A program made the position numbers and the translations under genes. Under the pieces are notes generated by a model, which was not told the DNA's origin, did not search any database, and saw only the letters and a list, made by a program, of their open reading frames with translations. A stretch of 28,407 nt of DNA from positions 1-28,407 of IMG/VR virus record IMGVR_UViG_2778260996_000020, one strand, 5' to 3'. Shown one piece after another: positions 18,910-28,407 of this stretch; position 1 is the first letter of the stretch; the number at the start of each line of letters is the position of its first letter. Source of the stretch: a virus. Its lineage: Duplodnaviria > Heunggongvirae > Uroviricota > Caudoviricetes.

Positions 18910-20817
18910 TTAGAACGATGTTACCCAGCTACGGCCTCTATTTGGGCGTCTGGCGATGTTTTGACGTTGCGGTCGTGTGATTGGCTTAGTTTCTTCGATT
19001 TGCTCGTTAGATTGCGATTTAGGAGCTTCTACGGATTCTTCAACAACACGGTTTAAGCTGTCTTTCATTGCAATGAGTTTATCCCATGACATTTTTGAAA
19101 GGACGTAGCGAGAAGCCGCATAGCTATAAACCAGACAGTCGAGAGCCTCGTTTCGGGTACTACCTGGATTTTTCACCCAACGCACGCCAGTAGTAGTACG
19201 CTTGATGGATTCACTCAAAAGCTGATCGAGATAATCATCAGGAACGGTTTCTGATATTTCTAAGCCAATATGAGGATTATCTTTCAGGTTTCTAACCAGC
19301 ATTTCACGAACAGCGGATTTGCCAACGTTAACACCCAACATAAGCAATTCATGACCACCTGTGCGGGTAGGTTTAACCGGAATCACTGGAGCATTACCAG
19401 ATGAACTACCTTTGATCGCGTGTAGGTTCTTCCACTTGCCGCAAATACGGTATCCGGCTTGAGTGAATCGACCGTTCGATGTATCAAGGAAGCTGGCGAG
19501 CATAGGAACACGTTCACCCTTAACGTTATAGAATTTGGTTTTCTTGAAGTTAACCAGACGATCCCAAACAGGTGATTCATATCGTTCACAGTTATGATCG
19601 TAAAAGCTGCGGTGATCCAGAATGTAAACCTTATCTTTCGCTACACCTAAGATGGTAGATTCTGCGCGGTCCAATTGCTGGTCAATTCCTGAACACAAGA
19701 AAATAACGTCATCAGGAATATTCTCGATAGAAACATCTGTTTTGAGTTGTTCCAGTTCATTTGCTTCTACTGCCGTGTCCTGATCGTCGTACACCTTACC
19801 TAATACGGTGTTAAAAAATGATTGTAAATCAAAGGATTGCCACGCATGACTAAAATCAACCACACAAGCGCGGATCGTGCTGAAAGGTGAATACAGACGG
19901 CTGATCCAGAATCCTGCTACCTCACTTTCGCGGGTTGCTCTCCACTCGCCTTGCGCTACTGCCCTGATTCGTTCCCCTTCTGTCCATGCGTTCTTACAGT
20001 GGGGGCAAATATAACGAGCGGTATCAGGATCGGGTAAGTTCTTACCATCGATGTTACGCCATTCAAATTGAACGTTTTCCCACTCGATCACCTGGTGTTC
20101 CCCGCAATGCGGACACGGAACAAAAAACATACGCATATCGCTTGATAACCATTGCTGGTTAATGCTTCCGAGCTTACTGGTCGGGGTACTGGATACGACT
20201 AATCGGCCTTCATCGCCAAAGGTAGTTAAACGGTTAGCAGCCAGTGCCACCGGATCACCTTCTTCTGAGGCTGTAGCAGCATCGATTTCGTCTAGTAGTC
20301 CGACCTTTGCAGTCTTACCGCGCAGGGTTGATGGACTGGTAAGCGATACCATGTACAGGAAGTGATTCGTTTTTAGCTGGAGTTGGTTATTGTTGTTAAC
20401 CGCATTGCGATCATTCTTGTCTGTAACCACGTCTTTTAATGCATCACATGCTTCGATAGACGGTCGGATCTTACCAGCGAGATATTGAGACATTTCTTTA
20501 GCGGTTGATTGTCCGATAATCATATTGCATGGATCGTTAGCCATCTGGTTAAACAGGATGCCATTCAGGATGGTAGTCTTTCCGATCTGCGCACTGGTCA
20601 TCAGAACATACTTTTTCTTGTTCTCAAGGAAAGGAGCATCAATCATACCTTTCTGGAATGACAGCAATTTAACTTTATCCCCAGCTTGAGGACCATCTAC
20701 CAGCACCATATTAGCTTCGCACCATTCCGATGGAAGGAGTTTAGGCGGTGGCGTAATATATTTGGCTGCATTTCTGAGAATCTTTTTTAATTTGGCCTTA
20801 TTAGAAATTAGTTTCAT
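18910..20817 (-). CDS. terL: Terminase large subunit (GpA-like), 635 aa
   Basis: Walker A-like SAQIGKTT and Walker B-like VGLLDEID in the N-terminal ATPase half. Cys-x2-Cys pairs (CPHCGEHQ...CPHCKNAW). Acidic nuclease-like C-terminal half. GAGGGT SD. Confidence 0.85.
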
Positions 20818-20905
20818 GTAATTACCCTCATTACGAAATATGAGAGTATTTATTAAATTGTTGATTTTCTGATAAATACGGGTATTAAGATTTAAGGGGG
20901 GTTGT

Positions 20906-21508
20906 ATGCTAATTAATCAGCAAGAAAGAGATGAATTAGAATTAGCCTTGTCTTGTACCGATCATGAATATCGTTTGCCAGTGAAGCACCATCACAAGAA
21001 GACTGATTACACAACATCTGGGTTTAGCCGTGAGGAAGCTAAACAGATTTTAATCGAGTTGTATCGTGATCATGGGTATACCGATATTCATAACTTCTTT
21101 AAGAAGCATCGCACATCACAGACAGAGTTTCAGCGAGTCCGTGAATGGTTTGATTTTGACATTAAGCGATTCTATCGAGTGGATGACGGTCCTATCTATC
21201 GGTTGCACTGGAAGCCGATCCGAGAAGTGTTGAAACAGAAGAGACTAAATCACGCAATTACACGCTATCGTAACGAGGCTTTCAAGAAAGGCTATGGTGA
21301 TACAAGGGAACTATTCGTTGAACTCGCTAACGTGCGTTATAGCCACTATTACAGGAATCCTAAAGAGTTCTTCGAAGTGCTGCGCAAGGTTGATATAAGT
21401 CGGGGTACATACTATTCACGGTTGAAGAAGTACGGGATTAGGGCAGAGTTCTTTATGAGTATTGACGACGGAGAACTTTTTCCTATAAAATGTAAGTCCT
21501 CTAAATAA
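20906..21508 (+). CDS. Hypothetical basic protein, 200 aa
   Basis: AAGGGGGG SD 6 nt upstream. Arg/Lys/Tyr-rich. Divergent from the terminase gene. Followed by a small HTH gene and a strong terminator. Confidence 0.5.
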
Positions 21509-21543
21509 AGGTGAACATTCACTTTAATTTGGAGAAAATGACT

Positions 21544-21768
21544 ATGACTACTAAAGCTACTCGCGGTCGTCCGGCACGTTTTAATCGTGAACAACTGGCA
21601 GCGATTGTAAAAGCGTACTATCAAGCGCCGAAAGGTAAAGCCGAAAAAGAACAAGTATTGAGTGAACACGGTATTTCAATTGCTCAATTCTACAAATCAC
21701 TCCATAAAGTTGATTTGAAATTCTTTGTTCAGGTTGACGGTGAAATGGTAGAAGCAACAGGAATTTGA
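21544..21768 (+). CDS. Small HTH DNA-binding protein, ~75 aa (paralog of 24965-25144)
   Basis: Track ORF starts at a GTG (21511). The ATG at 21544 has a GGAG SD at 9 nt. N-terminal RGRPARFNREQLAAIVKAYY resembles TetR/transposase-type HTH openings. Terminator follows. Confidence 0.5.
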   Translation: MTTKATRGRPARFNREQLAAIVKAYYQAPKGKAEKEQVLSEHGISIAQFYKSLHKVDLKFFVQVDGEMVEATGI

Positions 21769-21781
21769 TTCGATTCTCTAG

Positions 21782-21808
21782 GCCAATCCTTCGGGGTTGG
21801 CTTTTTTT
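21782..21808 (+). terminator. Intrinsic terminator after small HTH gene
   Basis: GCCAAUCC-UUCG-GGGUUGGC hairpin followed by UUUUUUUAU on the plus strand. Confidence 0.75.
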
Positions 21809-21821
21809 ATACCTACAGATA

Positions 21822-21847
21822 CAAAAAAAGCCCCTGAAATTCAGGGG
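21822..21847 (-). terminator. Intrinsic terminator after Rha-family gene
   Basis: Minus-strand RNA: GCCCCUGAAUUUCAGGGGC hairpin followed by UUUUUUUG. Forms a convergent terminator pair with 21782-21808. Confidence 0.7.
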
Positions 21848-21856
21848 CAAAAATTA

Positions 21857-22699
21857 TTACAGTCCGAAGACTTCCAGTGATCCAACATTCTGGCGAATCA
21901 GCAAAGCAGTGTTATTGACAATTGCTCGTGAGTTGTTCGGCTGTGGCAATTTCAAAGTTGCGGCCTTTTCTTCTTCAAGCAATCCGAGTTTTACGAGATG
22001 CGGGATAGCATCAGCAGTGAACTCGATCTGACCGTGTGCCGACATACGAGCGAACATATAGCCAGGAGGAAGCAGATCATAGCCTTTAGGCTTACCAGAA
22101 GCATCCAGACGACGCTCAAGAACACCAGCAGCACATAAACCTTTCAGAATCATTTGTACCGTCGTAGAGCCTCGTTTTTCGCCTAATAAGCGGCTAAGAC
22201 TGTGTGTGTCGATAGCTTTACGAACATGCAATTCAACCAGTTGTTTCTTTTCTTGAATCAGTTGTTCGTTTGCGGCTTCCAATTCCATTGCCTCACGAAT
22301 CCAGTCGAGCTTAGTCATGTTTGCGTAAGGGTTGATTTGCTGAGAACGCAGTTTTTCATTTTCTTCTTTCAGTCGTTTCCATTCCTGAATAACAACCATT
22401 CGACGCTTAACATCGTAACCAGTAACAAGAGTCAGAGTCATTTCTTCGTCTAAGTGATATACCGGTTCTTTAACAGCATACCCTAAGTTATTGATTCTCT
22501 CGACAAATTCAGTTTTGAGCTGATCGATAATACCTAAAGATTCGTACATTTCGCGAATATCGCGCATTACATTGCTGTGTTTCTTTCCGGTAAATTCAGC
22601 GATCTGACGAGAAGACATGGTCAGCGGTTTGGTGTTATCAACAACCAGAGACACGGAAGCAGTTTTAACAGCAGTATTCATAGCAGTAACAGTATTCAT
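21857..22699 (-). CDS. Rha-family phage regulatory protein (antirepressor-like), 280 aa
   Basis: N-terminal LTMSSRQIAEFTGKKHSNVMRDIREM matches the Rha/pRha domain signature. Coiled-coil middle. AAGGGG SD. Own terminator downstream. Confidence 0.7.
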   Translation of the reverse strand: MNTVTAMNTAVKTASVSLVVDNTKPLTMSSRQIAEFTGKKHSNVMRDIREMYESLGIIDQLKTEFVERINNLGYAVKEPVYHLDEEMTLTLVTGYDVKRRMVVIQEWKRLKEENEKLRSQQINPYANMTKLDWIREAMELEAANEQLIQEKKQLVELHVRKAIDTHSLSRLLGEKRGSTTVQMILKGLCAAGVLERRLDASGKPKGYDLLPPGYMFARMSAHGQIEFTADAIPHLVKLGLLEEEKAATLKLPQPNNSRAIVNNTALLIRQNVGSLEVFGL

Positions 22700-22788
22700 A
22701 ATTAAATTCCCCTTAAACGGTTTAGTGATATTGATCCTCCTAGTTCCGGCAGCATCACCGGAACATTTTTATTTATGATAGAAATTTA

Positions 22789-23121
22789 TTACCAATCGAT
22801 TTCTACTTGGTCTTCTTCATAATAAGGAATCGCATATTCATAACGCCAATTTTCGATGATTTCACGTTCTTCATTAGTAAGAAGGTGATTGTTAACTGGA
22901 GTCGCATTGTGATTACCAGCTTCGAATTGCTCGCGAACTTCCAGCATTGCATGAATACCAGTTAAGGTCATCAGATCAAACGGAACATGCATACTACGGG
23001 AGATAGTTTCACGGGATACGCCCCAATCATTTTCTACATGGCTAGGGGTTACAGAAACGGTTTTGCCGGAGATTTTAACAGTCCAGTCATACAGGGATTT
23101 AGTGATGGTAAATTCTTTCAT
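22789..23121 (-). CDS. Hypothetical protein, 110 aa
   Basis: ORF preceded by SD AAGAGGATG and a near-consensus sigma70 promoter (23178-23206). Confidence 0.5.
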   Translation of the reverse strand: MKEFTITKSLYDWTVKISGKTVSVTPSHVENDWGVSRETISRSMHVPFDLMTLTGIHAMLEVREQFEAGNHNATPVNNHLLTNEEREIIENWRYEYAIPYYEEDQVEIDW

Positions 23122-23177
23122 GTTACATCCTCTTTACAAATCCAGGTCAAATATAATAAAAGTTGTCAAGTGCGATA

Positions 23178-23206
23178 ATCATAAAAAAGTCATAAATTTT
23201 TGTCAA
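23178..23206 (-). promoter_or_regulatory. Near-consensus sigma70 promoter driving the 110 aa gene
   Basis: On the minus strand: TTGACA (23206-23201), 17 nt spacer, TATGAT (23183-23178). Confidence 0.55.
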
Positions 23207-23241
23207 TATACCTTGACAAGACGCCAAAGGGTTGACCTAAC

Positions 23242-23700
23242 TTACAGCATATCTAAGCCTTCATCGTAACCGTAGAAGCCACCGTGAGAAGAGAAAGCGA
23301 TTGGTGCGTAGTCTTCGTCTTCCTCATCTTCTTCATCTTGTTCTGGGGCTTCCTGAGCGGTTTCTTTGCCGTAATCAGCCATAATCTGGTCAAGATCGGC
23401 GATCCCATAGTAAGAGCCTAAATCAACGTCATATTCACGGACTTGAAACGGCAGATCATCACGAACAATAATTGCTGGAATATCGTTGTATTGAAGACGA
23501 CCTTCATCAGTAAAACAGTCGATGATCACAGTAGGACGACCATTTCGTTTTAAAGCGTAGAAAGCAGTTGAGTAGTTGGAGTCTTCGGAATGACGAATGA
23601 TGTTATAACCACGATTAGCGAAAACTTCTAGCATATGGAAGTTGCCATAGTTTTCAGAGTCCAGACCCAGAAGTACGAAAGGAGTTTTAGTATTGATCAT
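23242..23700 (-). CDS. Hypothetical protein with strongly acidic C-terminal tail, 152 aa
   Basis: ORF with AGAGGA SD. C-terminal EQDEEDEEDEDY stretch. Confidence 0.5.
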   Translation of the reverse strand: MINTKTPFVLLGLDSENYGNFHMLEVFANRGYNIIRHSEDSNYSTAFYALKRNGRPTVIIDCFTDEGRLQYNDIPAIIVRDDLPFQVREYDVDLGSYYGIADLDQIMADYGKETAQEAPEQDEEDEEDEDYAPIAFSSHGGFYGYDEGLDML

Positions 23701-23923
23701 AGTGGAAATCCTCTAAAAGAAAGTGAATCAAGTAAGTTCACTATTATTTATAACGAGAATTTTTTATCTATTTGGAAGTGATTGGATTCAGTCGGGCTAA
23801 AGCCCTCCTTCATATATTTGATTAAATCATCATCAAAACGAAGAAGTATCTTTAGAATATAAGAATCTTTCTTTTGGAGAAATTATAATCAGGAAGCAAT
23901 TTAGCAACCGAAGGTTGCAATCC

Positions 23924-23969
23924 CGAAGGGATACCAATCACTTTCTAGAAAGTGATTGGTATCCCTTCG
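23924..23969. repeat. 46 bp perfect palindrome
   Basis: CGAAGGGATACCAATCACTTTC-TA-GAAAGTGATTGGTATCCCTTCG; every position is self-complementary. A GCAACCGAAGGTTGC hairpin lies immediately upstream. Confidence 0.9.
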
Positions 23970-24277
23970 TTCGTTTACTAGAATCAGTTAGTAACTAGTA
24001 TTAAATCCCTTTCTAAGAAAATCCTTTCAAAAGCGAGTGAACGCCGTAGGCGTGAACGTGAGCGAAGCGAACTATCCAATCCCTTTCGAATCCTGCTTGC
24101 AGGTCTTAGAAGGTGTTGATGGGCGCTTCGCGCACGGCTACGCCGTATTCTTTTTGCGAGATCTTTCTTGAACGTAGTGAGAGAAAACGAGCAAAAAGGA
24201 GAACGTTAGTTCGAATTTTATATTCTATGGTCTGTGGGGTGAAATGTCTTTCAAGATCATACACTTATGAGATTGAA

Positions 24278-24399
24278 GTGTAGGGTTAGTGTAGGTGTGT
24301 AGGTTTCATAGTGTAGGTTTGAGGGTGTTATAGTGTAGGTTTACTGACTAGTGTAGTGTAGGCCAATACCTTTAAAGCGTAGGTTTGTAGTGTAGGTTT
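24278..24399. repeat. Iteron array: about 8 direct copies of (A)GTGTAGGTTT
   Basis: Copies at about 24278, 24290, 24297, 24311, 24333, 24356, 24377 (GCGTAGGTTT) and 24390. All same orientation, irregular 0-14 bp spacing. Confidence 0.85.
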
Positions 24400-24593
24400 T
24401 TCATCAAAAATTTTGATAGAAAATTCTTGTATATTATTTAACCGGAAAATCACCAAAAATCGCTGTAAATGCATGATTTAAAAAGAATTATCAAAAGGTC
24501 GCCGTGCTATAATAGGTTATAAAGGTTGATAATCGTTATCCGCCATTTTCACACAAAAATTTTGATAGTCATTTCTCGCTTAGGTCAAGTGCA

Positions 24594-24622
24594 TTGACAA
24601 CTGTCAAGGATTATTTTATACT
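24594..24622 (+). promoter_or_regulatory. Near-consensus sigma70 promoter for the 59 aa HTH / 339 aa / 80 aa operon
   Basis: TTGACA (24594-24599), 17 nt spacer, TATACT (24617-24622). The -35 lies inside a TTGACAACTGTCAA palindrome. Confidence 0.55.
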
Positions 24623-24964
24623 TTTTCTCATTGGTAGGGGTTGAAATTTTAGAAACAATCCCCATATTGATGATAAACAAGATTTTTTCGTGTATAAATA
24701 CATGCATGAAATGATTGTTCACTTCTGAAAATCCCCTGATTCACTGTTAACACACACAGCACTGGTTAAACACACAGTGCTTTTTCGATTGAATAATGTA
24801 CGAATTGATTAATTATTAATCTTCTCTTTAGCAATTCGTGCTCCCGCTGATCAGATATACAGTGGTTTTGCAGGGTTTTCTGAAATGACTTTTATAAATA
24901 GAAGTATCGAGGGCGAAAAGCTCTTTTTATTATCCTTATTAATCCACATTTGAGGAATCTACTT

Positions 24965-25144
24965 ATGGCTAGACCTGTTAAGTTTACTCGTGAAATGATT
25001 GTTGATATTGCTAAACGCTTTTATGGCGATACTGAACGAGGCGGCGAGAATTTCTTTAAGAAGGAAGGAATTGATAGAAGCGGATTCTATAAGCTAATGA
25101 AGAAATACGAAATTCAGATAAAGATTAACGTTCAAGTTTGTTAA
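24965..25144 (+). CDS. Small HTH DNA-binding protein, ~59 aa (paralog of 21544-21768)
   Basis: Track ORF starts at TTG (24950). The ATG at 24965 has a TGAGGAA SD. ARPVKFTREMIVDIAKRFY aligns with GRPARFNREQLAAIVKAYY of the paralog. Shared GI...FYK motif. Confidence 0.5.
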   Translation: MARPVKFTREMIVDIAKRFYGDTERGGENFFKKEGIDRSGFYKLMKKYEIQIKINVQVC

Positions 25145-25175
25145 TCCACTTTCACTGAGAATTATACGATGGCTT

Positions 25176-25216
25176 TAAAAATAAAAAGCCTCCCTTGTTG
25201 CAGCAAAGGAGGCTTG
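25176..25216 (-). terminator. Minus-oriented hairpin + T-run (antisense terminator candidate) between small HTH gene and 339 aa gene
   Basis: AAGCCUCC...GGAGGCUU 8 bp stem. On the minus strand it is followed by UUUUUAUUUUU. On the plus strand no U-tract follows. Confidence 0.4.
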
Positions 25217-25260
25217 AAATGAACAATTAAAACTAACACAGCATTCAGGAGTATTTATAA

Positions 25261-26280
25261 ATGAAAAATTCTAAGCGCATCACCTTCAACCTGTTTATTA
25301 AATCCAACGGCAAACTGAACATTACCGTCATGGAAGGTAAAGCAAGCAAACAAGACAAATCCTTTGAAGTAGTATCCGGTAAGACTCTGACCGAAATGCG
25401 TCAGAATGCTGGCATCAAAGACGGTGCTGAATGGCAGATCACTAACCGTTTCGACAAACGTCACGTTAAACCTACACTGGTAGAAGGTGAATCCGTTTAT
25501 TGCTTCGCTCGTGCTGCTAAAGCCGATGAAACTTACTATCTCGCTGTTGTTAAAACTGCTTCCGGCTTCCGTGCTGTAATGCATCACAAGAGCAAGCGTA
25601 ACGAATACGGCGTAGAGACCCAGGAAGTTGCTAAACGCTTCCGTACTGTTGCTACCGAATCCACTGTAAAAGATGTTTCTGGTACTGTTAACACCACTAA
25701 AGGCGGTTCCTTCTACAACCACGCATTACAGGTTACTTCCTCCTTCTTCTGCAAAAAAGAAGCACAGAAAGAAGTTGCTCCGGTAGTAGTTGAAGAAGTT
25801 AAAGAAGAAGTTGCAGTGGTTGAATCTTCCGAAGTTGAAGCACTGAACGCACGCATTGCTGAACTGGAAGCAGAAATGGCAGCAGTTAAAGCAGAAAACG
25901 CATCTCTGAAAGCTGAACTGTCAGCACAGGAAACCACTTTCGAAGTAGCAGCGGTTGAAGTTGAAGCAGTTGAAGAAAAATCCATTGATGAAGAACTGGA
26001 AGAACTCCTTAACTATCGTTGGGGTAACGGTGAAGAAGTAGAACAGAAAGAAGCTGATCCGGTAGTAGTTCCGGTTCCGGTTGAAGCAGAATCCGCACCA
26101 GTTACCAACTTTGAAACACTGCGCAATAACTTTATGGCTAAATTCAAAACCACTTGGGAAGATACCGAAGAAGAACAAGAAGAGATTGAAGTAAACGAAG
26201 ACGAGATCCGCGAAGCACATATGGCACTGCATGACGCTATCTATGACACCAACTACAGCGCCTACGCATACGCAGCTTAA
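25261..26280 (+). CDS. Hypothetical acidic coiled-coil protein, 339 aa, probable highly expressed early protein
   Basis: AGGAG SD. Codon usage strongly biased toward major E. coli-type codons (CTG, CGT, GAA, AAA, GTT, ACC, TCC), unlike neighbouring genes. Central Ala/Glu coiled coil. Acidic C-terminal third. Confidence 0.6.
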   Translation: MKNSKRITFNLFIKSNGKLNITVMEGKASKQDKSFEVVSGKTLTEMRQNAGIKDGAEWQITNRFDKRHVKPTLVEGESVYCFARAAKADETYYLAVVKTASGFRAVMHHKSKRNEYGVETQEVAKRFRTVATESTVKDVSGTVNTTKGGSFYNHALQVTSSFFCKKEAQKEVAPVVVEEVKEEVAVVESSEVEALNARIAELEAEMAAVKAENASLKAELSAQETTFEVAAVEVEAVEEKSIDEELEELLNYRWGNGEEVEQKEADPVVVPVPVEAESAPVTNFETLRNNFMAKFKTTWEDTEEEQEEIEVNEDEIREAHMALHDAIYDTNYSAYAYAA

Positions 26281-26295
26281 TAGAGGGGTGAATCT

Positions 26296-26538
26296 ATGAT
26301 GAATCAAAACAAAGAATTTCTGGGTAATCTGATGTTAGAAATTACCAAAATGAAAGAAAGAATGGTAGCGATGGAATCAGAGATTAAAACACTTAAAGCT
26401 GATAATAAGGCGTTGAGAAAGTCCTTAAAGCTGATTGATGAGACTAATGCGGTTATGATGGATCATGTATTCCCTGAGTGGCGAAATGAAACTAAACCTA
26501 CACAACATAAGAAACTTACACTTCGAATTGTTGCATAA
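26296..26538 (+). CDS. Hypothetical coiled-coil protein, 80 aa
   Basis: GAGGGG SD. Translationally close to the upstream gene. Heptad-like sequence. Confidence 0.5.
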   Translation: MMNQNKEFLGNLMLEITKMKERMVAMESEIKTLKADNKALRKSLKLIDETNAVMMDHVFPEWRNETKPTQHKKLTLRIVA

Positions 26539-26560
26539 AAAAAAGGACTCCGAAGAGTCC
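26537..26560 (-). terminator. Minus-oriented intrinsic terminator
   Basis: Minus-strand RNA: GGACUC-UUCG-GAGUCC followed by UUUUUUUU. Confidence 0.6.
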
Positions 26561-26636
26561 CTAGTAAGTTTAGGTTAGGTTTGCACAACAAAGATGAGGT
26601 TATAATGAACATAATGCTACATTATTCTTTAAAGCC

Positions 26637-26662
26637 AGAAAAATAACCGCCCCGAAGGGCGG
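26637..26662 (-). terminator. Minus-oriented intrinsic terminator
   Basis: Minus-strand RNA: CCGCCC-UUCG-GGGCGG followed by UUAUUUUUCU. Confidence 0.55.
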
Positions 26663-26821
26663 GAGGATTAATACTCAATCTATACTTGTTATGTTTTTAT
26701 GTTGTATAGATCCTGACTATGAAAACACTGTACTGGAAGTGTGTTTTTATGGCTTTTAATCGGGAATCCTCAAAGAAGATCCCCTGTTAATAACCATAAG
26801 GAGAAAAGGCAGATTACACTA

Positions 26822-26995
26822 TTATTTAGTATCCTTTTTACAGCAACTAAAAAGAATAAACAAAAAGAAGCATACCCAGCCGTAAGGCGTACCGATTAGA
26901 AATTTGAAAAACACCACCAGCGATATAAAAATCAATTTAATGCCAGCGACGATAGTCAAAAACAGCAGAGTAGCAAAGTAGACAAAAAGATCCAT
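26822..26995 (-). CDS. Small hydrophobic membrane protein, 57 aa (not in ORF track)
   Basis: Hand-translated: MDLFVYFATLLFLTIVAGIKLIFISLVVFFKFLIGTPYGWVCFFLFILFSCCKKDTK. AGAGGA SD 7 nt upstream of ATG. Two predicted hydrophobic helices. Confidence 0.4.
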   Translation of the reverse strand: MDLFVYFATLLFLTIVAGIKLIFISLVVFFKFLIGTPYGWVCFFLFILFSCCKKDTK

Positions 26996-27048
26996 AGATA
27001 ATCCTCTTTGAAAACGACCATCATCTATAGTTCAATTCATCGATTTAA

Positions 27049-27150
27049 TTAATGATACTTGAAAGCGTTACACAAAGTAGAAATGCCAATATGTGCCAGT
27101 GAATATACGATAGTTAATCCTACAGCCAGATAAATCAAAAATTCAACCAT
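27049..27150 (-). CDS. Small hydrophobic peptide, 33 aa (not in ORF track)
   Basis: Hand-translated: MVEFLIYLAVGLTIVYSLAHIGIFYFVNAFKYH. GAGGA SD 8 nt upstream. Single predicted TM helix. Sits directly after a hairpin terminator. Confidence 0.3.
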   Translation of the reverse strand: MVEFLIYLAVGLTIVYSLAHIGISTLCNAFKYH

Positions 27151-27170
27151 AGGTAAATCCTCAAATAAGA

Positions 27171-27199
27171 AAAAGGTTAGCGGGGGATGTTCTCCCCCG
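27171..27199 (-). terminator. Weak terminator downstream of Nu1-like gene
   Basis: 7 bp GC stem (CGGGGGA/UCCCCCG) followed, after CUAACC, by UUUUUCUUAUUU on the minus strand. Confidence 0.4.
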
Positions 27200-27250
27200 T
27201 AGACGTTGACCAGCTCAACATCCTTCACGTATATATTTAGTATCTAATTT

Positions 27251-27802
27251 TTAAGACACATCAAATTCATCGTCTTCTTCTGGTTCTTGTTCCGGTTCAT
27301 CCATTAATGGTAATTCTTCTTCCTCGTCTTCTCCCAAATCTGCATTTTCGAACAAGTCCCCTACTTCATTTAAACGACGCTCGATAATCTCTCTTAGCTT
27401 ATTCTTCAATGTTTTCTGGTCATTGGCAGATTCGAGAATTTCTAGGGCATCGATTGTGGCGATCTGCAAAATAGTCTGCTTCACTTTCCCGCAATATTCC
27501 GCTAGCTCCTGCTCCACATACCCGACGGGAATCAGGAGATTCATCGCTTCCTGGTTCTCTCGTTCGGCTGCATCTGCTAATGCTCTCTCACGGCGTAATT
27601 TCTCTACGTCGATTTGTTCCTTGACAGTAGTTTCTTTAAGCGGGTTGATGATATTTTTCAAGACCCATTCTGTTCCTTCTTTGGCTGGCACGCGGCGGGT
27701 ATTGGTATTAAATGGCATTCCTCGTTCTTGCCATTTCTTAGCGGCGTTAATTGTATAGCCGTATAAACGGGAAATTTCTGTAAGGGTTAATTCTTCTTTC
27801 AT
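27251..27802 (-). CDS. Nu1-like DNA-binding protein (candidate terminase small subunit), ~183 aa
   Basis: Start placed at second ATG (27802), which has a GGAGGA SD. N-terminal LTEISRLYGYTINAAKKWQERGMPF resembles the winged-HTH of lambda Nu1 (IRTIQNWQEQGMPV). Followed by EKLRRE coiled coil and acidic C-terminus. Confidence 0.5.
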   Translation of the reverse strand: MKEELTLTEISRLYGYTINAAKKWQERGMPFNTNTRRVPAKEGTEWVLKNIINPLKETTVKEQIDVEKLRRERALADAAERENQEAMNLLIPVGYVEQELAEYCGKVKQTILQIATIDALEILESANDQKTLKNKLREIIERRLNEVGDLFENADLGEDEEEELPLMDEPEQEPEEDDEFDVS

Positions 27803-28101
27803 CCGGTTATCCTCCATTAAATTTGCGTAAAATTATTTATCTGATCTGCGCATTCAGGAGAGCGCCTAAAACGCTTTATAACGAAGGGAAAGATCGAGGC
27901 ATGGAAAGGGATTGGCGGGTGTTAATAGTCGCGTAGCGACCGCGCTGGTGGGCTGCACTGCACCTGTTTTGAAATCTCACACGTACATCAAAAACCGGGG
28001 TGCCGAAAACTCCCTTTATTTCACCCGTGGAACAGTACCTTTTGATTTGGTCAAGTCTTTTTTATAAATAATCGAAAATATTTTTCACGCGAGGGCAAAT
28101 C

Positions 28102-28407
28102 ATGAAGACTAAAGATATTAAGATTGAATTTGAAACTGTTGATGACGTTCGGGAACATCGCATTGATTCTACTGGCTGCATCTTCCAGCTTACTAACTCC
28201 CCTATTGGATTGATTATCTATGTAGCAGAAGATGACGTGTACGCTATATGGGATGGACAGGATGAGTTTAAAGGCGGGAATAGCCATCTGATCAATACTC
28301 ATGAGGGATTTGATCCGACTCCTGTCTGTATGCTTGCTTATCACGTAACACTGGATGAACTACCGGAAGCAAGCGCGCGTATCCGTAGAATGAAAGACAT
28401 TAAGTGA
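28102..28407 (+). CDS. Hypothetical protein, 101 aa
   Basis: Complete ORF with GAGGG SD. Stop is the last codon of the window. Confidence 0.45.
   Translation: MKTKDIKIEFETVDDVREHRIDSTGCIFQLTNSPIGLIIYVAEDDVYAIWDGQDEFKGGNSHLINTHEGFDPTPVCMLAYHVTLDELPEASARIRRMKDIK

Follow-up and report, generated by a model that had tools for sequence, protein, structure and literature searches.

Two small HTH proteins, A (74 aa) and B (59 aa), and a 200-aa basic protein are paralogs encoded in a temperate prophage of E. coli, Salmonella, and Proteus. We give somewhat better than even chances to a reading in which the three are core regulators, B acting on the replication operon and the 200-aa protein and A on the divergent promoters next to the large terminase gene. 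The 339-aa protein encoded after B is most likely an iteron-binding replication initiator, as judged from its match to the repeat array upstream. A sequence-only reading had proposed that A and B belong to anti-defense or host-takeover loci of the acr-aca type. The part of that idea that survives is a small regulatory HTH protein inside the operon that it would control.

Prophage and gene order

The window, which is the whole 28,407-nt stretch of DNA analyzed, is the bulk of an undescribed temperate prophage of ~36 kb (E. coli/Salmonella/Proteus). Of 5,426 complete E. coli genomes, 64 (~1%) carry a related copy in the chromosome, and the prophage family is also present in Salmonella, Shigella, and Proteus. 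The prophage of strain 2014EL-1346-6 splits hicB and encodes a large serine recombinase. No DNA-level relative of the region was detected by megablast in a collection of 50,697 phage records, and no homolog of the 200-aa and 339-aa proteins was detected in the same collection by tblastn. The closest match to TerL in that collection is only 43% identical. A search of the remaining prophage turned up no further HTH or repressor gene, and the phage has no recognizable CI/Cro-type repressor.

TerL and TerS are encoded on the same strand, 6.4 kb apart, and the whole early/replication region lies between them (Table 1). This block begins with the 200-aa gene and A, both plus-strand. Next come a leftward operon for the 152-aa, 110-aa, and Rha-family proteins and 1.26 kb of noncoding DNA, and then, again on the plus strand, B followed by the 339-aa and 80-aa genes. 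The order TerL, 200-aa gene and A, Rha through 152-aa gene, 1.3 kb of noncoding DNA, B and Rep-like (339-aa-type) gene, TerS is the same in 33 IMG/VR contigs, three Salmonella genomes, and Proteus mirabilis (~40 loci, three genera). The 200-aa gene is present in every related locus, and together with A it always abuts TerL. A B-like gene precedes the Rep-like gene in every sufficiently long locus. The gene after B is seemingly variable but is actually one gene with one architecture and several types. The A, B, 200-aa, and 339-aa genes are syntenic core genes, not variable cargo.

Other genes of the region were noted. The probable start codon of the TerS gene is its second ATG (27802), where GGAGG serves as ribosome-binding site. 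The 152-aa protein heads the leftward early operon, is very acidic (pI 4.06, 32 D+E residues), and has no family match. An anti-restriction or DNA-mimic candidate, if the region has one, would be sought in the 152-aa protein sooner than in the 200-aa or the 339-aa protein. Right-end cargo is strain-dependent: the window carries a 101-aa ORF with no assigned function, and strain 2014EL-1346-6 carries a lysozyme-inhibitor LprI-family gene at that position (locus L002, 27246–28025).

Table 1. Features of the TerL–TerS region and right end, in window coordinates.
Feature	Position	Strand	Description
TerL	18910–20817	minus	Large terminase subunit
Dyad GTATTTAT-N18-ATAAATAC	20846–20879	.	In the 88-bp TerL/200-aa intergenic region
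200-aa basic protein	20906–21508	+	Two tandem A/B-type HTH domains, ~residues 40–98 and 133–200
Protein A, 74 aa	21544–21768	+	RGRPxRF arm, three-helix HTH, C-terminal beta-hairpin
Intrinsic terminator	21780–21803	+	Ends the 200-aa/A transcription unit
152-aa protein	23242–23700	minus	Heads the leftward early operon
46-bp palindrome	23924–23969		Perfect and loopless
GC-rich block	24030–24150		Long-range inverted repeat 24049–24069/24124–24144
Direct repeats TAGTGTAGG(T/G)TT	24276–24400	+	~8–9 copies; candidate origin iterons
AT-rich stretch	24400–24479	.	25% GC; adjoins repeats; candidate DNA-unwinding element
Sigma-70-type promoter of B operon	24594–24622	+	TTGACA-17-TATACT, 11/12
Dyad TTGAC-N4-GTCAA	24594–24607		Overlaps the -35 of the B promoter
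Structured leader, ~340 nt	24629–24964	+	Folding z-score -4.3
Leader 5' hairpin	24637–24663	+	
Leader terminator-like hairpins	24758–24786, 24909–24935	+	
Protein B, 59 aa	24965–25144	+	A-type HTH domain, single C-terminal strand; first gene of the replication operon
Hairpin and T-run between B and 339-aa gene	25186–25215	minus	Reads as a minus-strand intrinsic terminator
339-aa protein	25261–26280	+	Basic N-terminal domain, coiled coil, acidic C-terminal half; putative initiator
Promoter-like site	25297–25268	minus	9/12
80-aa coiled-coil protein	26296–26538	+	Last gene of the B operon
TerS homolog	27251–27817	minus	phrog_57, E = 7e-16
101-aa ORF	28102–28407	+	Right-end cargo

A family of small HTH proteins

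The ORFs of A and B exist as the sequence-only reading had described them. Both have ribosome-binding sites (GGAG, 9 nt upstream, for A), and database proteins of equal length match them at 96–100% identity. Their positions, A downstream of the 200-aa basic protein (pI 9.5) and B upstream of the 339-aa protein, were also correctly given. The proposed paralogy holds by BLASTP (31% identity over 58 aa, E = 2e-8) and by hhalign comparison of the A-family and B-family profiles (probability 97.9%, E = 5e-13). An N-terminal arm, RP.(K/R)F.RE, and a GI....FYK element, both proposed earlier, are common to A and B in the alignment. An AlphaFold2 model of A (pLDDT 80) has a disordered basic arm (RGRPARF) followed by three helices (residues 15–27, 32–41, and 46–55) and a C-terminal beta-hairpin. 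Across the A family, overall identity drops to 60% with no change in the arm or anywhere in the third helix (GISIAQFYK). Such invariance of the arm and putative recognition helix is the pattern expected of a DNA-contact surface facing a conserved site.

A and B have no significant model in Pfam, NCBIfam, PHROG, or PADLOC. A Foldseek search of the PDB with the modeled structure of A gave no significant match (best E = 0.84), and a profile search of PDB sequences returned none. The only recurrent weak Pfam matches were HTH_Tnp_1 (E = 0.017–0.078), HTH_7, HTH_10, and UPF0175. In the comparison with HTH_Tnp_1, 4 of 19 family members had weak matches, and the match is sub-threshold, with 13.7 bits against a gathering threshold of 24.1 (E = 0.078). 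No Pfam match at E ≤ 1 was obtained to Xre-type HTH, DUF1870, or RHH models. The family profile gave 26 matches among 1.84 billion representative proteins: the true family members are all from this prophage lineage, and the rest are proteins of repeated HTH_Tnp_1/HTH_23/HTH_28/HTH_7 units. The B profile had no match in species-representative genomes.

An HMM built from the A and B families only detects two domains in the 200-aa protein of the window (pI 9.47; E = 1.7e-7) and in its Salmonella (7.9e-13) and Proteus (2e-10) orthologs. Aside from the 200-aa protein, it has no further match among the 273 reading frames of the window. The 200-aa protein had been taken for an unknown cargo protein; because it carries two A/B-type domains, this "unknown partner" of A is a tandem paralog. 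A, B, and the 200-aa protein form a narrow new family, essentially confined to this prophage lineage, whose HTH is transposase/Hin/homeodomain-like and not of the Xre class. Taken alone, A and B are ordinary, one more small HTH family in a prophage.

The A/B fold resembles the three-helix HTHs of transposases and recombinases (HTH_Tnp_1, HTH_28, HTH_23, and HTH_7; Hin, Tc3, and the CENP-B N-terminal domain). Unlike these, A and B stand alone as proteins, extended by a C-terminal beta strand or hairpin and lacking a catalytic domain. They also have no mobile-element context and fall below every Pfam gathering threshold.

Other families were considered. Neither A nor B combines a TetR_N HTH with a C-terminal ligand-binding domain, as the TetR family does. 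A match of the small proteins to the terminase small subunit or another structural family was sought and none was found: A, B, and the 200-aa protein have no PHROG or Pfam TerS match, and a separate TerS homolog is encoded in the window.

The 200-aa and TerL genes diverge across 88 bp. This intergenic region is near-invariant between E. coli and Salmonella even where the flanking proteins are 50–56% identical. Both half-sites of its dyad, GTATTTAT and ATAAATAC, are kept in Proteus with a different spacer (N26), and the dyad is either an operator or an overlapping divergent -10 pair. A promoter proposed earlier at 20860–20890 fell below the scan threshold. We regard the 88-bp region as a late-operon control region, and the 200-aa protein and A suggest themselves as the proteins that would act on it.

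Motif counts were also compared with expectation. GTATTTAT occurs four times in the whole window against 1.6 expected, marginally above chance. All four copies are in early regulatory DNA, and the motif occurs at other promoters too. As an operator, GTATTTAT is ambiguous since its count is barely above chance and it resembles a -10 element. The motifs TTCTAGAA and CTAGAA are not enriched. The dyads at the B and 200-aa promoters do not co-vary with protein type, and none of the three paralogs could be linked to a specific DNA site.

A YCTTG pentanucleotide repeat is found at codons 15–18 of the 200-aa gene (window ~20950–20965). It has two units in most loci and is expanded to nine units in locus L009 (~7370–7410) and seven in L039 (~7380–7410), where the ORF is shortened to 37 and 28 aa, respectively. 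The expansion could be decay or slipped-strand on/off switching.

The 339-aa protein and the proposed replication operon

The 339-aa protein has an N-terminal domain of pI 9.7 and a C-terminal half of pI 4.1. The repeat array upstream has 12 matches against 3.3 expected, and all repeats are in the same orientation. Type I proteins, including that of the window, occur with repeat core GTGTAGG (16/16 loci), type II with AGGGGCAA (15/15 loci), type III with CGGGGA (2/2 loci), and the Proteus type with CTAGGGAT (1 locus). Protein type thus matches the type of the upstream array in 33/33 loci, plus Proteus. One locus carries two Rep-like genes and, with them, two repeat families. The initiator/array specificities number at least five or six (loci including L004, L010, L017, L021, and L040).

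The promoter, leader, and B gene sit between the repeats and the 339-aa gene, yet they reassort independently of the protein–repeat pairing. B2a is found with types I and II, and alpha and beta leaders are found with both. The linkage of repeats and protein is therefore best explained as functional, not merely physical. The type-matched arrays, and the two arrays found where there are two genes, argue that the 339-aa protein is most likely an iteron-binding replication initiator. The repeats and the AT-rich stretch have the anatomy of an iteron origin with its initiator, and probably constitute a modular origin/initiator system; the basic character of the N-terminal domain fits this assignment. 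The earlier view of the 339-aa protein as unknown cargo does not agree with this initiator signature.

Repeats, an AT-rich region, and a type match are present as in iteron–initiator systems; homology to a known Rep family is not. The 339-aa protein has no match in Pfam, PHROG, NCBIfam, or PADLOC, where NCBIfam and PADLOC returned coiled-coil noise only, and no homology to known initiators. Its structural model (pLDDT 58) is too poor for an informative fold search. No DnaA box is present. Lambdoid O proteins have type-specific N-terminal domains paired with type-specific ori iterons. The 339-aa protein shares with them a type-specific N-terminal domain matched to type-specific repeats and a more conserved C-terminal part. 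In contrast to lambdoid O, it has no sequence similarity to these proteins, its repeats lie ~0.9 kb upstream and not within the gene, and no P-like or helicase-loader gene was recognized here.

The promoter proposed for the B operon was borne out as a strong sigma-70 match. The arms of the TTGAC-N4-GTCAA dyad, a candidate operator at this promoter, are kept in 21 loci with six different 4-nt centers; the dyad is absent in beta-type leaders carrying the same B type. B types (B1, B2a, B2b, and B3) do not co-vary with promoter/leader type, and a comparison of the two for an operator of B gave no signal because they reassort freely. The structure of the leader suggests attenuation, antitermination, or, by analogy with the RNA-based immunity of phage P4, a leader-derived small RNA. 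The leader also contains an invariant box, TTTAGCAATTCGTGCT.

The hairpin between B and the 339-aa gene is kept with every type of 339-aa protein, Proteus included, and may be the terminator of an antisense RNA. A minus-strand promoter-like site within the 339-aa gene would yield an ~85-nt antisense RNA spanning the ribosome-binding site and start codon of that gene. This promoter reaches 9/12 with type I only and is not conserved across initiator types, and for this reason the antisense RNA is treated as hypothetical.

Further elements were found in the noncoding region. The palindrome, with halves CGAAGGGATACCAATCACTTTCT and AGAAAGTGATTGGTATCCCTTCG, contains two inverted copies of ATC[CA]CTT[TC]C and is itself not conserved in Salmonella. 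The ATC[CA]CTT[TC]C motif has eight copies in the window against 0.84 expected and is enriched in the origin region. Further copies lie just upstream of the promoter of the 152-aa gene (23774) and upstream of the TerS gene (27904). The GC-rich block is common to E. coli and Salmonella prophages, has no Rfam match, and could be a non-coding RNA or an origin element. No Rfam family was detected in 20700–28407, where the sole matches are artifacts of the palindrome.

Proposed roles and alternatives

Each HTH gene is co-oriented with its neighbor, so a regulatory or autoregulatory role is reasonable. From the observed paralogy, fold class, gene order, and initiator–repeat match, we infer DNA binding, its targets, and the sign of regulation as follows. 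In this domain, a three-helix HTH would be preceded by a basic arm of the minor-groove type and followed by a beta strand or hairpin, probably for dimerization, and the double-domain 200-aa protein would be a covalent pseudo-dimer. The three paralogs would be lineage-specific, sequence-specific DNA-binding proteins and core regulators of the ~36 kb temperate phage. The replication operon is read as a strong promoter, a leader with two terminators, B, a hairpin, the initiator-like 339-aa gene, and the 80-aa gene. B would regulate transcription of this operon, and the 200-aa protein and A would repress or activate the divergent TerL/200-aa promoters.

The role proposed for B, as transcriptional regulator of the replication operon, is based on a layout that matches copB-copA-repA of R1 and copG-RNAII-repB of pMV158. 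R1 CopB and pMV158 CopG are small repressors cotranscribed with rep (PMC5717011). They are small DNA-binding proteins, as B is predicted to be, and are encoded immediately upstream of, and co-oriented with, an initiator gene, as B is with the putative initiator gene; the cop-rep operons and the B operon all have a strong promoter. The hairpin between B and the 339-aa gene faces the opposite strand, which in R1 and pMV158 encodes the antisense RNAs CopA and RNAII. The layout is that of a Cop-type system, the rep identity of the 339-aa gene being suggested by the repeat match and cotranscription across the hairpin between the genes being presumptive. CopG, however, is a ribbon-helix-helix protein, whereas B is a predicted three-helix HTH protein, with no homology or Pfam match. 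The element here is an integrated phage and not a plasmid, the antisense promoter is not conserved, and repression by B is suggested by analogy.

Phage Mu encodes Mor and C, two paralogous small HTH activators of middle and late promoters. A and B would resemble them as paralogous small dimeric DNA-binding regulators of successive phage stages, one of which adjoins the late operon. In contrast to this likeness in arrangement, no homology to Mor or C was detectable, and for A and B activation is one of two possible signs. A more far-reaching proposal is that the three paralogs are the whole transcriptional switch of this phage lineage, which lacks a CI/Cro-type repressor, that B, the hairpin, and the initiator form a plasmid-style copy control, and that initiator and array are swapped as matched cassettes. 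We consider this proposal doubtful.

The main competing explanation assigns accessory functions to the same proteins. B would be an origin accessory that aids initiator binding or remodeling or recruits host factors, and A and the 200-aa protein would be architectural or packaging factors. In its favor are the constant company of B and the Rep-like gene, the constant position of the 200-aa and A genes beside TerL, and the unusual 6.4-kb distance between the two terminase genes. The ATC[CA]CTT[TC]C motif, enriched in the origin region (8 vs 0.84) and also found upstream of the TerS gene, fits as well. However, the types of B assort freely with those of the initiator and its iterons, which leaves B without a type-specific partner among the initiators. 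For A and the 200-aa protein, a complete TerS homolog is already present (phrog_57, E = 7e-16) and no packaging-family similarity was found. We judge accessory functions to be rather improbable. A or B could also be a recombination directionality factor (excisionase-like) for the large serine integrase. Directionality factors of serine integrases are diverse and often small, and A and B are predicted small basic DNA-binding proteins of a prophage with a serine recombinase. Their genes, however, lie 15–20 kb from the integrase and attachment sites, and the three paralogs are at promoters and the replication operon, with no tie to the attachment sites. There is very little probability in this assignment. 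The least credible alternative, to which we give next to no weight, is that the A/B similarity is a relic of IS OrfA-type HTH fragments with no present function. It would accommodate the sub-threshold HTH_Tnp_1 matches (E = 0.017–0.078) and the transposase-type HTH repeat proteins among distant profile matches. Against it, no transposase or IS context was found in the window or related loci and no IS ends lie nearby, ~40 loci of three genera keep intact ORFs together with their ribosome-binding sites and terminators, and the putative DNA-contact residues are invariant.

The acr-aca reading, with A and B as Aca-like autorepressors and the 200-aa and 339-aa proteins as anti-defense or host-takeover effectors, is very unlikely. 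Real features speak for it: each small HTH gene forms a short pair with a co-oriented neighbor, the B promoter has a dyad across its -35, and no library assigns a function to the partner proteins. Aca regulators (PMC9410906, PMC13551039) are alike in being small HTH proteins in a short operon with a promoter-overlapping dyad and a structured 5' UTR. What stood of the reading is that A and B are small, basic, HTH-type paralogs, as a small HTH/RHH DNA-binding regulator would be; its anti-defense part did not. Judged from sequence, the neighbors here are not Acr proteins or other anti-defense genes of the same operon, but a paralogous DNA-binding protein with two copies of the A/B-type domain and an iteron-linked, initiator-like protein. 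The type of the latter matches the array at every examined locus, and array number equals gene number. Aca loci pair a conserved regulator with variable cargo, whereas these gene pairs are syntenic core in three genera with an order fixed in ~40 loci, the opposite of variable neighbors, and the variation of the 339-aa protein is allelic and repeat-linked. No match to Acr, Aca (including Aca-type Pfam models), or defense families was found in Pfam, NCBIfam, PADLOC, or PHROG.

The value of the analysis of A and B is mainly corrective: the locus is not to be mined as an acr-aca or anti-defense candidate. An uncharacterized replicon with exchangeable initiator/iteron pairs is a more interesting result than the HTH family. 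If the copy-control proposal is true, a phage integrated in the chromosome would carry a copy-control module like those of R1 and pMV158, its initiator/array cassettes coming in at least five or six specificities. No early-region gene of this prophage family was previously annotated, and the analysis provides its first functional map, with a likely origin with exchangeable initiator/iteron pairs, a small putative regulator heading the replication operon, and a candidate divergent late-gene control region.
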